Shown here: one piece after another, positions 9,740 through 26,378 of the stretch
How the letters are laid out: every line of letters starts with the position of its first letter
How positions within the stretch are numbered: position 1 is the first letter of the stretch
DNA from: Octopus sinensis
Taxonomy: Eukaryota
Length of the DNA: 64,000 bases
Reading direction: 5' to 3'
NCBI RefSeq assembly: GCF_006345805.1
Contig: NC_043002.1
Location: 34,410,001-34,474,000 of the forward strand
The notes under the pieces: generated by a model
The model's database searches: none
The model's input: the letters and a program-made list of their open reading frames with translations, nothing else
What the model was told of the DNA's origin: nothing
Translations under genes and position numbers: made by a program

Positions 9740-9795
<56 letters not shown>

Positions 9796-9802
9796 CATAT
9801 AC

Positions 9803-10085
9803 AGTAAATCTCAAAAAGAACAAACACAAAAACACAACAACGCTAGGACGTGTACATATAATGTATTAGCAGACACTCAGGGAAAGAAAGATGGTTTAAC
9901 GTTTTGAGCAGACGCTCTTCTTCGGAAACAGAGGAAAATAGAAGGGAAGACGGAGGAAGAAAATCGCCAACGATTCACTTGTGGTTACATTTTGAAATGA
10001 CCGGAAGTGAATGGGTGAAGAAAAAATTATTTCTACGACAGGAGAGAGTAAGAGAAGGAGGTGTGTGGGTACGTTCGTGCGCGCA
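9803..10085 (-). mobile_element. Penelope-like terminal fragment with a degenerate hammerhead (9894-9930)
   Basis: Minus strand reads gttt CCGAAGA a gagc-gtct-gctc AAAAC GTT aaac; homologous to the terminus of the element at 12238. Confidence 0.6.
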
Positions 10086-12175: not shown

Positions 12176-12237
12176 CAATACATATGTGTGTGTGTATAGA
12201 TATTTACATATATGTATGTGTGTGCATATATATATAA

Positions 12238-13700
12238 CGGGAAGCTTTATGAAAATAAACAAAAGACGAAGGCAGGTGGAAAACAAACGAACAATTGTAT
12301 TAGTATGGCGCTCAGGAAATATAAATAAAACAAGTCTTTAACGTTTCGAGCCTACGCTCTTCAACAGAAAGATACACAGAGAGAGAAAAACACAGAAAGA
12401 AGGAGAGAAAAAAAATGCGTGCAGTAGCTAACGAATCAACATGGCGATCTGATTTCGGCCAGAGGTCAAAGATCAAACATGAGACGCGAGAGCGAAATAA
12501 GGGGAGATAATAGGGTTGATAAAAGGGTTGAGGGACCAGCTAAAAGTGCGTGGGAGGGGTCTGGATGTGTGTATGTATAGGGTTGGTGTATGTATTAGTA
12601 TGTATAAGGGTGTGTGTGTGTGTGTGTGTGTGTGTATGAGAGAGTATTAGTGCGTAAGATTGGTCTGGACGTGCGTATGTATGGGGTTGGTGTATGTATT
12701 AGTATGTATTAGTATGTATTAGTACGTATTGGTATGTATAGGTGTGTGTGGTGTGTGAGAGAGAGTATAAGTGCGTATGCGGGGTCTGGACGTGTGTATG
12801 TATAGGGTTTGGTGTAAGTATTAGTATGTACTAGTATGTATTAGTACGTATTAGTATGTATTAGTTGGTGTGTGTATTAGTATGGCACATCATATGTGAT
12901 GTGATGTGTAAAGTCATGTGGTGTAGTGAGGAGAAGAGGGGGAGGGGGAGAAGAGAGGAGGGGAAGAAGAGGGGGAGAGAAGGGGAGGGGAAGAAGAGGG
13001 GGGAGGAGAAGGGGGAAGAGGAGAGGATGGGGGAGAAGGAAGGGGATGAGGGGGAGAAGGAGGAAAGAGGGAGAGGGGGAGAGAGAAGGGGAGAGAGGGA
13101 GTGAGGGAGCAGAGGGAAGGGGAAGAGGGAGGGAGGGAAAGAGGAAGAAGGGAAGGGGAGTAGGGGTGAAAGGATGAAGGACTGAAGAAGTAGGGGTCGG
13201 GGGGAGAAAGGATAGGTGAGGAGGGGGTGAGGTTAGATGAGGAGGGGGGAGAGTTGAGACCAAATGGCGTATAAGAGCGAAGAGAGAAGATTAATTCTGT
13301 TCACGCGCAAACGCAACGGGAATGGGATGGCCTCAAACGTGTAAGGACAAACCGTTGCAAGGATAGGTGTTTTGCAAGGAGTGACCGGTGGAGCGGAAAT
13401 GGCGTGAGACCGGTGTGGTCGTTCGCAAGGTGTGGAGATGTCACGAAGGTGTTCCGCGAACCGGTCAGCCAAGCGGCGTCCCGTTTGTCCGATGTACAAG
13501 GAATTGCAGAGAGAGCAAGAGTTGCAATAGATAATATTGCTGGAGGTGCAGGTGAAGGAGTGGATGATGGGATAGGGTCGATGGTGGGTGCTAGTGAGGC
13601 GGGTGGTGTTGGAGAGGTAAGGGCAAGTGCGGCAACGTGGGCGGGAGCAGGGGAACGAGCCGGGTTGGGAGGTAGGGTCAGGGAAAGAGCTATGGACCAC
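12238..13700 (-). mobile_element. 5'-truncated Penelope-like element (Neptune-type): GIY-YIG remnant, low-complexity 3' region and hammerhead-containing terminus
   Basis: Translates to CSRPRCRTC (Cys linker), FTCTSSNIIYCNSCSLCNSLYIGQTGRRLADRFAEHLRDI, then frameshifted PVSRHF..GHS..REQ..LIFSL..PFGLN. The hammerhead lies downstream on the same strand. Confidence 0.9.
12335..12372 (-). ncRNA. Minimal hammerhead-like motif with variant core CUGUUGA
   Basis: tcttt CTGTTGA a gagc-gtag-gctc GAAA CG TT aaaga: 5-bp stem I, 4-bp stem II, stem III reduced to the palindrome ACGT. Confidence 0.7.
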
Positions 13701-13961: not shown

Positions 13962-15174
13962 CAGGGGTTGAACAAAATAATGGAAATATAATTTTGTTCT
14001 ATAATGGCATCATAATTTTGAAATATCTATAAAACCGTCAAAAGCTTGTTTTTTTATGTTTTTTTATTTATTATTAGTGTTGCTTAGTATGTTTTGCTAA
14101 AATTGCTGTTTCTTTTCAGATATCATCAGAAAAGGGTAATTAAAATTCATTAAAATGACAAATTTATCGGACTTTCAAAGAGGGCAAATTGTTGGTGCTC
14201 GTATGACAGGCGCTAGCGTAACGAGAACAGCCGAAATGTTTGGTGTATCAAGTACTGTATCGAAAGTAATGACAGCCTTTGAGAAAGAGGGAAAAACCTC
14301 CTCGTCGAAACAAAACTCCGGAAGAAAACCAAAATTTACAGATAGGGACCGTCGGACTCTTACGCGAATTGTTAGAAAGGATCACAAAAGTACAGCTCCC
14401 AAAATTACTGCAGAGCTTAATGATCACCTCAAGAACTCAGTTTCCACAAAAACTTTTCGCCGGGAGCTGCACAAAGCCGGATTTCACGGGAGGGTTGCGA
14501 TCAGAAAACCACTATTTTCAAGAACAAACGTTGCAAAGCGTATAGAGTGGAGTAAAAACCTACAGAATTGGTCCCCAGAGCAGTGGAAGAATGTTATTTT
14601 CTCAGACGAGTCATCCTTTACTTTATTTCCGACCACCGGCTGAGTATACATTTGGAGGCAGCCAAAAGAAACATTTGACCCAGACTGCCTTCTTACAACT
14701 GTTAAACATGGAGGAGGATCTGTGGGGCTATATCTTGGAAATCTTTCGGCCCAATGGTTTCCCTCCATGGCAGAATTAAGAGTCAAGACTATTTAAGCAT
14801 TTTATCTTATCGAATTCATTCTATGGTTGCAGAACTGTTTCCGGAGGGAAACGCAATCTTTCAGGATGATATTGCACCAATTCACACAGCTAATGTTGTT
14901 ACTGAATGGCACGAGGAACATTCTAGTGAAGTTGAACATCTTATCTGGCCACCGTAGTCCCCAGACCTCAAAATTATTGAACATTTATGGTGCATTTTAG
15001 AAAAACAAGTAAGGAGTCGATATCCTACACCATCATCACTACAAGAACTGAAGACAGTTTTAGCTGAAGAATGGACAAAGTCCCTTTGGATTACTGCCAA
15101 AGGCAGTCCTACCCCATTTTAGAATAAATTTGTTTGAAATTTTAAGTTGTTTCCATTAATTTGTCCAATCCCTG
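13962..15174 (+). mobile_element. Tc1-family DNA transposon with DD36E spacing (Incomer-like), 1213 bp
   Basis: 25-bp TIRs caggggttgaacaaaataatggaaa / tttccattaatttgtccaatccctg (3 mismatches); TA at 13960-13961; transposase inside. Confidence 0.92.
14155..15090 (+). pseudogene. Tc1 transposase pseudogene
   Basis: Paired-like HTH N-terminus, GRKPK, IFSDES, TVKHGGGSV, FQDD and WPP*SPDLKIIEHLW; stops at 14641 and 14955 plus a frameshift. Confidence 0.92.
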
Positions 15175-21651: not shown

Positions 21652-21742
<91 letters not shown>

Positions 21743-21745
<3 letters not shown>

Positions 21746-21921
21746 GAAATTTACAGAAAAACAAAAGACGAAAACAGATGTATAAACAACAAACATGTAT
21801 CAGTTTAACGCTCGTGAAAGTGAGGCAGTCGTTTACGTTTCGAGCCTACGCTCTTCAACAGAAAGGAACACAGAAATAAACAGAGAGAGAATAAAGAAAC
21901 TTTAGGGGTTAGCGGTCAGTC

Positions 21922-21922
<1 letters not shown>
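21743..21922 (-). mobile_element. Penelope-like terminal fragment with hammerhead (21830-21865)
   Basis: Minus strand reads cttt CTGTTGA a gagc-gtag-gctc GAAA CG TA; core identical to that at 12335; flanked by (TA)n on both sides. Confidence 0.75.
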
Positions 21923-21960
<38 letters not shown>

Positions 21961-24924: not shown

Positions 24925-26337
24925 TTACTTATGGCAAAGTAAATCTAATGAAACACACACAGACAAGCAGAAAGACAGACAGACCAACAGACAGAGTGGC
25001 AAGCAAGCAGGCAGACAGACTGACAGAGAGACACACCGACAGACAGAGTGGCAAGACAGACAGACAGACAGATAGATAGTTTTGTTCATTTTGTTCTCGA
25101 CCGAAAATTTCCAAATAAGTGTTTGTATTTTTGTTTACTTCTTATAAAAAGTAAGATATTTCTTCATATGTATGTAAATACACATGTATGCATTTATGTA
25201 TGGATACATGTACGCATTTATGTATATACGTACGTACTGTGCATTTATGAAGGTATGAAAATATGTATGCCTGCATATACGTAAATTTTACGGTAGAATA
25301 TTGTCGCTCGAAATGCAAAAAAAAAAAAAAGATAGCAGCCAATTTAAAATAGGCAATAGGATCAGTCGTTAATTTATGTATTGGAAATAAATATAATTCC
25401 CCTTTTTGTACAACTAAAAGTTATGAAATCCTATGTGCAAATCCACACTACTCCTCAACAAACATGCCAAACGAATTCACACTCACCGACACAGAACATT
25501 TAAACACTTAAATATAACAAACTCTGTGATATACTCTAACAGATAGCCCTATTATTTAACTATCTTATACAATCTACAGCTAAATCCTCTTTAATCCGTT
25601 GCCATTATTTGTTACTATTTATAGCTACTAACCTTTTTAGTTGTATACATAAACTATTACACTCATACCTCTATAGCTCTCTATCATTATGTAACCCTGG
25701 TACTTTTAATATTAAGAGCACCAAGCGAAGGTCGAGATCTGCACATACATGTATATACCAAAACAAACACGCTCGCATATACTCATGCATATACGGACAT
25801 ATTCATGCACCTAAATATACATGTACATGCACACATCAATATACACATGTGTATAGATATACAGGTGCATGAAATTATATACCCATGCATACTGGAATGC
25901 AGTTTCAGGATCAAATGTAAGTTCAAGATCCCAAATAGGGAAGGTTCAACGCATGGTGTTTACATAAAGAAAGAACCCATTTGTGTTCTTTCTTTAACTT
26001 ATTCATGTTTTTCTTTGTGCAGGTTGCGCCGGTAACCAGCTGGCGGAGGATTTGCCTGGGGTTAAAAGGGTAGTAACGTCGAACAGCCATATTGATGTGG
26101 CGATAAACATTTACTTTTCCTTATAGTTATTACTTTCGTCTCTTACTGGGATTTTCTAAGTGACTACTTTGCTTGTTACATATGTGTGTATATGTGTGTG
26201 TGTATATATATGTGTGTATGTATGTATGTATGTATGTATGTATGTATGTATGTATGTATATATATATATATAAGGAGAGTTTACGAAAAAAACAAAACAC
26301 GAAGACAGGTGGTGTACAAAACAAACAGATGTATTAG

Positions 26338-26378
<41 letters not shown>

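Follow-up and report, generated by a model that had tools for sequence, protein, structure and literature searches.

The window analysed here is a 64,000-nucleotide stretch of Octopus sinensis DNA (contig NC_043002.1, positions 34,410,001 to 34,474,000), and its minus strand carries a minimal hammerhead-type motif in which core position 6 is U (U6) in place of A (A6). The motif stands near the 3′ end of a truncated Penelope-like element (PLE) and downstream of an endonuclease remnant, ∼1.1 kb away on the same strand, as the first-pass annotation had proposed (Table 1). Broken transposase frames resembling Tc1/mariner lie just upstream of the element at 14140–15122 (+).

Table 1. Features of the window connected with the U6 motif and its host element (window coordinates).
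Feature	Position	Strand	Remarks
Minimal type I hammerhead-type motif	12335..12372	-	Exactly from helix I to helix I
U instead of A at core position 6	12364..12364	-	
Penelope-like element copy, 5′-truncated, fitting Neptune type, youngest subfamily	12236..13700	-	Both ends adjoin microsatellite
Zinc-finger-like linker and GIY-YIG endonuclease remnant	13233..13700	-	Three frame pieces
Tail downstream of the predicted cut, ∼105 nt	12236..12339	-	Copies end here in (TA)n
Short stub, older U6 subfamily	21700..21960	-	Hammerhead 21829-21866; H17 = A; one helix I mismatch
Stub of the sister A6 clade	9790..10050 (extent approximate)	-	Hammerhead ∼9893-9928
Fourth U6-clade stub	26245..26340	-	Truncated downstream of the hammerhead and therefore without the motif

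Read on the minus strand from 12372, the motif comprises the 5′ strand of helix I (12372–12368), the core residues C3 U4 G5 U6 U7 G8 A9 starting with C3 at 12367, an additional A, a 4-bp helix II with a 4-nt loop, G12 A13 A14 A15.1, the residues C15.2 G16.2 U16.1 U17, and the 3′ strand of helix I (12339–12335). In this copy helix I measures 5 bp, the helix III half is palindromic, position 17 (H17) is U, and the cut is predicted to fall at 12340/12339; helix I, the pairing of helix II and the G10.1–C11.1 pair all form in its predicted fold. The additional A had at first been considered unusual, which it is not: the published consensus for minimal Penelope hammerheads is CUGANGAH, and an A inserted between 9 and 10.1 is their ordinary state (PMC4209133).

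Three hammerhead-type relatives, all on the minus strand, are present in the window (the copy with C3 at 12367, the 21835 copy and one with C3 at 9924). A search of the window found the same 27-mer exactly at 12341–12367 and 21835–21861, both on the minus strand and in flanks that are only ∼75 per cent identical, and two such matches in the window compare with none in 100 shuffles. The annotation had described the motif as conserved between copies on these grounds; the sequence identity is real, but its cause is membership of a family of thousands of copies and not conservation of the locus. The third relative indeed has the core CCGAAGA that had been noted for it (C4 and A6), together with a GTCT loop and a G12-to-A change, and is placed in the sister clade described below. 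As was also anticipated, standard searches miss the motif: Rfam gave no hammerhead match up to E 10 in 12290–12420, and in a scan of the whole window there was no hammerhead among the 150 listed of 417 matches, which were microsatellite noise.

The host element is abundant and young. The 1.46-kb piece in the window is 94 per cent identical to a long copy, and its GIY-YIG remnant (E 0.005, under the Pfam cut-off) is preceded by a C-x4-C-x2-C linker that is found in the long ORFs as well. A search of this genome (2.72 Gb) with the endonuclease piece returned 13,406 candidates, 150 of which were scored, and the 50 loci examined represent 48 distinct places including this window; the motif lay 0.5–1.1 kb downstream of the endonuclease in 49 of the 50, always with U6. 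Twenty long loci picked for long open frames contain frames of up to 1009 aa, and their ORF DNA has a mean identity of 98.8 per cent over 190 pairs, which indicates a young subfamily. One 963-aa frame matches RVT_1 (E 1.6e-7, above the cut-off) and GIY-YIG (E 0.003, under the cut-off), so that a single ORF holds the reverse transcriptase together with a C-terminal GIY-YIG domain as in endonuclease-positive Penelope-like elements. Six of the 20 carry the motif at both ends, ∼4.5 kb apart, within partial-tandem end repeats of 310–1386 nt and 91–99 per cent identity, and one upstream copy among these six has C6. The succession of reverse transcriptase, CX2-5CxxC linker and GIY-YIG, the partial tandem end repeats and the insertion into (TA)n resemble what is described for Neptune and Nematis elements in the pertinent part of Craig et al. 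(2021, PMC8557442). By its linker the element fits the Neptune type, although the linker is common to Nematis and the two stay unseparated on this sequence feature.

Two further observations concern the element and its relatives. At the tandem junctions of five loci (L166, L168, L169, L172 and L173) the tail is followed by a short fixed TA tract and then by the following unit's 5′ leader, such that the upstream hammerhead precedes the start of that unit by ∼110 nt. The searches also recovered, as by-catch, another GIY-YIG Penelope-like family, which is distant (29–45 per cent identity) (L021:1968-2102, L072:310-555 and L008:2692-2988).

The U at position 6 is a property of the lineage. The exact U6 27-mer occurs 5,575 times in the genome, as against 140 copies with A6 and any N7 and 184 in which position 6 is a letter other than U (A, C or G) and is followed by U7; a hand count of the first 100 of those 184 gave 75 C, 19 A and 6 G, from which A6 with U7 is estimated at ∼35 copies genome-wide. 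With the loop left free, 6,346 cores are U6–U7 and another 10,080 combine U6 with A, C or G as the next letter (16,426 together). These counts bear out the earlier proposal that the substitution is a family-level variant rather than decay, and so does the comparison of CTGTTGA with CTGATGA when young full-length elements are included, since near-intact young elements carry U6, not a CUGANGA consensus, and the stems persist from one subfamily to another.

The A6 copies that do occur inside the lineage are scattered among U6 copies of the same N7 on a tree built from the flanks without the core (among the copies listed), and their frequency is like that of the comparable T-to-A change at position 4 (26/66, hand count). 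For both reasons they look like point mutants; as judged by sequence they behave as such and not as the source lineage, and these A6 revertants show no amplification. The C6 copies (∼138) are far commoner than C at position 4 (31/66); loss of CpG may explain part of this excess, and a small C6 subfamily is possible.

The nearest relatives with A6 form a sister clade with the same helix II, for which 15,344 pattern matches were counted, some of them from unrelated families. On an unrooted tree of the flanks the clade, which accounts for 38 of the 167 sequences, splits off cleanly with a support of 0.97; one of its ORF pieces shows 55–64 per cent identity, and the fourth pair of helix I is C-G in 9/9 U6 groups versus G-C in 5/6 sister groups. 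It contains groups with canonical CUGACGA and CUGAAGA cores as well as abundant C4 groups, while the extra A and helix II are common to both clades. Because A6 is found both in the sister clade and in the published consensus, U6 can be read as a single derived change, and from these sequences it likely arose once from A6. Within the sister clade, the abundant U4C subfamilies (L189, L191-L193, L198 and others) represent a second core change that spread, and the canonical U4 copies there have different flank letters and look older.

Given that fetching copies by a core pattern biases any sample toward conserved cores, a sample was drawn by the downstream block (the first 100 of 18,692 matches). 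The core region is kept in 82 of these copies; the 18 that were dropped are mostly truncated in or beside the motif. U6 is present in 82/82, and the extra A at 9/10.1 in 81/82. N7 takes all four letters (U42 C15 A15 G10), H17 is A54 U27 C1 G0 and thus satisfies the NUH triplet, and every remaining position of the core, helix II, the loop and helix I has one letter in at least 72 of the 82 copies. C3-G8, U4, G5, A9, G12-A13-A14 and A15.1-U16.1 each reach at least 75/82, the ACGU palindrome is present, and the first positions beyond helix I are variable, such that the conserved island stops at the helix I edge. Decay of a single copy as the origin of U6 is ruled out by the genome counts together with this sample, and a core register shifted by the extra A is ruled out since the freely varying N7 fixes G8.

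Clustering by flank sequence, which yields five groups holding 45 of the 82 copies, allows the motif to be compared with its surroundings. Varying columns number 2/36 in the motif, namely N7 and H17, versus 36/97 in the flank (Fisher p 0.0002, and 0.00005–0.003 at three other cut-offs). In nine hand-made subfamilies up to 35 per cent apart, a core-fetched and therefore biased sample, variation is again restricted to N7 and H17. The chance that a random pair of changes among 28 positions lands on these two is 0.003, or 0.04 when the four loop letters are also counted free. As N7 and H17 are the positions that hammerhead chemistry leaves free, this pattern suggests that the catalytic layout has been kept by selection. 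Loop II and helix II are invariant in the U6 clade as well and show no compensatory change; catalysis alone does not require this, and the constraint may therefore lie on sequence. No U6 family with a different helix II was seen among the first 100 of 436 matches, which had the look of point mutants left unpaired. Since chance alone would leave one column unchanged, the constancy of U6 is by itself no sign that U6 is favored.

Structure prediction gives a mixed picture. In a rod-like monomer fold U6 pairs with A15.1 at a probability of 0.98 in three U7 copies and 0.12–0.73 in three other copies. The hammerhead dimer is estimated at −14.9 kcal/mol versus −28.0 kcal/mol for the best dimer fold, by a folding model that ignores tertiary contacts; the dimer topology is possible, yet is not the lowest-energy fold, in U6 and A6 copies alike, and A6 copies misfold too. 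Within the tail that follows the predicted cut lies a conserved block with complementarity to the helix II 3′ strand, and the predicted alternative pairing between this GAGCG block and that strand ranges from 0.0 to 0.9 among copies. A specific off-switch fold was rejected on account of this spread and of the occurrence of the alternative pairings in A6 copies as well. The GAGCG-containing block (window ∼12297–12318, minus strand) is kept in both the U6 and sister clades.

The ends of the copies bear on whether the RNA is cut. Among 36 distinct loci (first 100 rows, hand count) no excess of copy 5′ ends was found at the cut beyond TA microhomology: six ends lie at the cut, five at the other TA site, four at −11 and seven at +6. 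The copies come to an end ∼105 nt beyond the cut site, which most of them cross, and this implies that the copied RNA was uncut there or had been re-joined.

Several natural and engineered hammerheads may inform these observations. The motif shares with the minimal hammerheads described in the corresponding sections of Cervera and De la Pena (2014, PMC4209133) its site in end repeats, the short helix I, the extra nucleotide at 9/10.1, G10.1-C11.1, the missing helix III loop, the palindromic 15.2–16.2 and the NUH triplet, as well as thousands of truncated single copies and two copies flanking full elements. It differs in having U6, whereas the alignment of representatives in their supplement appears to have A6 throughout, although the descriptor demanded it. 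Those sections report weak cleavage, as dimers, for minimal PLE hammerheads, and a U3-A8 swap as the sole family-level core variant. A natural substitution at position 6 is described for the A6C hammerhead of phage Bcep176, which cleaves at a low yet still detectable rate of <0.1 per min (Perreault et al. 2011, PMC3088659), although this is one phage motif with C compared with U in >16,000 retroelement copies here. For one type III hammerhead, mutating the CUGA region at one or two positions gave low activity in every case but the C3/G8 swap (PMC9901934).

The PAc hammerhead of the anole Poseidon PLE is protein-assisted, and its mutants still insert in vitro, according to the portions of Frangieh et al. 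(2024, PMC11167929) that treat it. Like the motif here it is a hammerhead of a PLE and lies upstream of the point where reverse transcription begins, and those portions report no reads ending at the cut; in contrast, it belongs to the Poseidon clade, its protein-assisted cleavage has been demonstrated, and it overlaps the ORF start, whereas the octopus motif is non-coding. Naiad PLEs thrive without canonical hammerheads, whose function is called unclear in the relevant passage of Craig et al. (2021, PMC8557442). The variants of Lunse, Weinberg and Breaker (RNA Biol 14:1499) appear similar in their short helix III, their association with PLEs and their dimers, as far as the title and a review passage describe them. 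In the literature searched, to which neither Lünse et al. (2017) nor supplement file 1 of PMC4209133 belongs, no U6 hammerhead family was found, and A6U is absent from the hammerhead-related parts of PMC6765202, PMC11014351, PMC12192606, PMC6962438, PMC6155905 and bioRxiv 10.64898/2026.07.22.740005.

Metagenome contigs were examined for A6U motifs of independent origin at 80 loci out of at least 119, and one locus with both helices, L376, was obtained, which was rejected: its U6 motif sits beside a canonical inverted partner and is thus not family-level evidence. At this locus (L376:245-335) two minimal hammerheads, one with A6 and the other with U6, stand in inverted orientation and resemble the published Acropora Neptune motif.

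Taken together, we favor, at a probability of roughly 55 per cent, the reading that the motif is a hammerhead-type, attenuated ribozyme of an abundant Neptune-type Penelope-like lineage, slow, acting as a dimer and perhaps helped by protein. U6 would have been fixed once from A6, and selection would afterwards have retained the catalytic layout. Slow cutting may have been tolerated or even favored, as a fast ribozyme in the 3′ repeat would split the start of reverse transcription from the element; new copies begin ∼105 nt downstream of the cut and cross it, and the template should thus be uncut or re-joined. Dimer formation via the ACGU palindrome, assistance by protein and the lowered activity of A6 mutants are taken from the literature and would hold here by analogy. 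A bolder and tentative extension is that A6U makes a working, deliberately damped hammerhead, and that Penelope lineages have repeatedly fixed core changes (A6U, and U4C in the sister clade) which hold the RNA uncut until a protein or a partner copy licenses cleavage.

A quite different explanation, which we consider possible but would not wager on, is that the motif does not cut and is kept as a signal of sequence or structure, for binding of the element's protein or as part of the promoter in the end repeat, with uncut RNA being copied. The invariance of loop II and helix II without covariation, the second conserved block downstream, the lack of excess copy ends at the cut and the failure of A6 revertants to spread all agree with such a signal, as do the abundant C4 subfamilies of the sister clade, which carry another impairing change, the in vitro insertion of the anole PLE without cleavage in the cited portions of PMC11167929, and the low activity of CUGA mutants (PMC9901934). 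Against such a signal stand the facts that only N7 and H17 change, both of them free in hammerhead chemistry, that H17 is never G in 82 copies, and that the conserved island ends at the helix I edge; the chance of this particular pair is 0.003 or 0.04 as calculated above. The annotation had left the choice between an active non-canonical ribozyme and a fold retained for recognition; between these the evidence is divided, and it leans to an attenuated over a fully active ribozyme.

It might instead be expected that a lineage as successful as its A6 sister (16,426 versus 15,344 matches, counted with different patterns), and one in which U6 has persisted over many successive subfamilies, owes this to compensation of U6 by the extra A, by dimers or by protein, with activity close to that of canonical minimal hammerheads. 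This is improbable, as the A6 changes in print lower activity, nothing that would compensate can be seen in the sequence, the A6 clade has the extra A and helix II as well, and the register fixed by the free N7 leaves no shifted reading that restores A6. Least probable is a neutral relic whose apparent conservation reflects kinship among subfamilies: some blocks of the flank are conserved too and the unbiased comparison involves just five groups, but the excess of varying columns in the flank over the motif, and flanks up to 35 per cent different between subfamilies, argue against it.

What cutting does for Penelope hammerheads has been explained in print by ideas that span RNA processing or circularizing to mere hitch-hiking. 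The lineage described here amounts to a natural experiment on this point, in that it has amplified over a long time despite a core change that cripples model hammerheads and has kept the other catalytic positions, and since the genome holds natural copies of both kinds, U6 and A6, with no other difference than that one base, a direct test is possible. If U6 copies cut, both the core consensus in current use and the descriptors employed in searches are too narrow; if the tentative idea of a damped hammerhead were true, functional ribozymes would escape CUGANGA descriptors by the tens of thousands in each genome. If U6 copies do not cut, the hammerhead fold has a second job in these elements.
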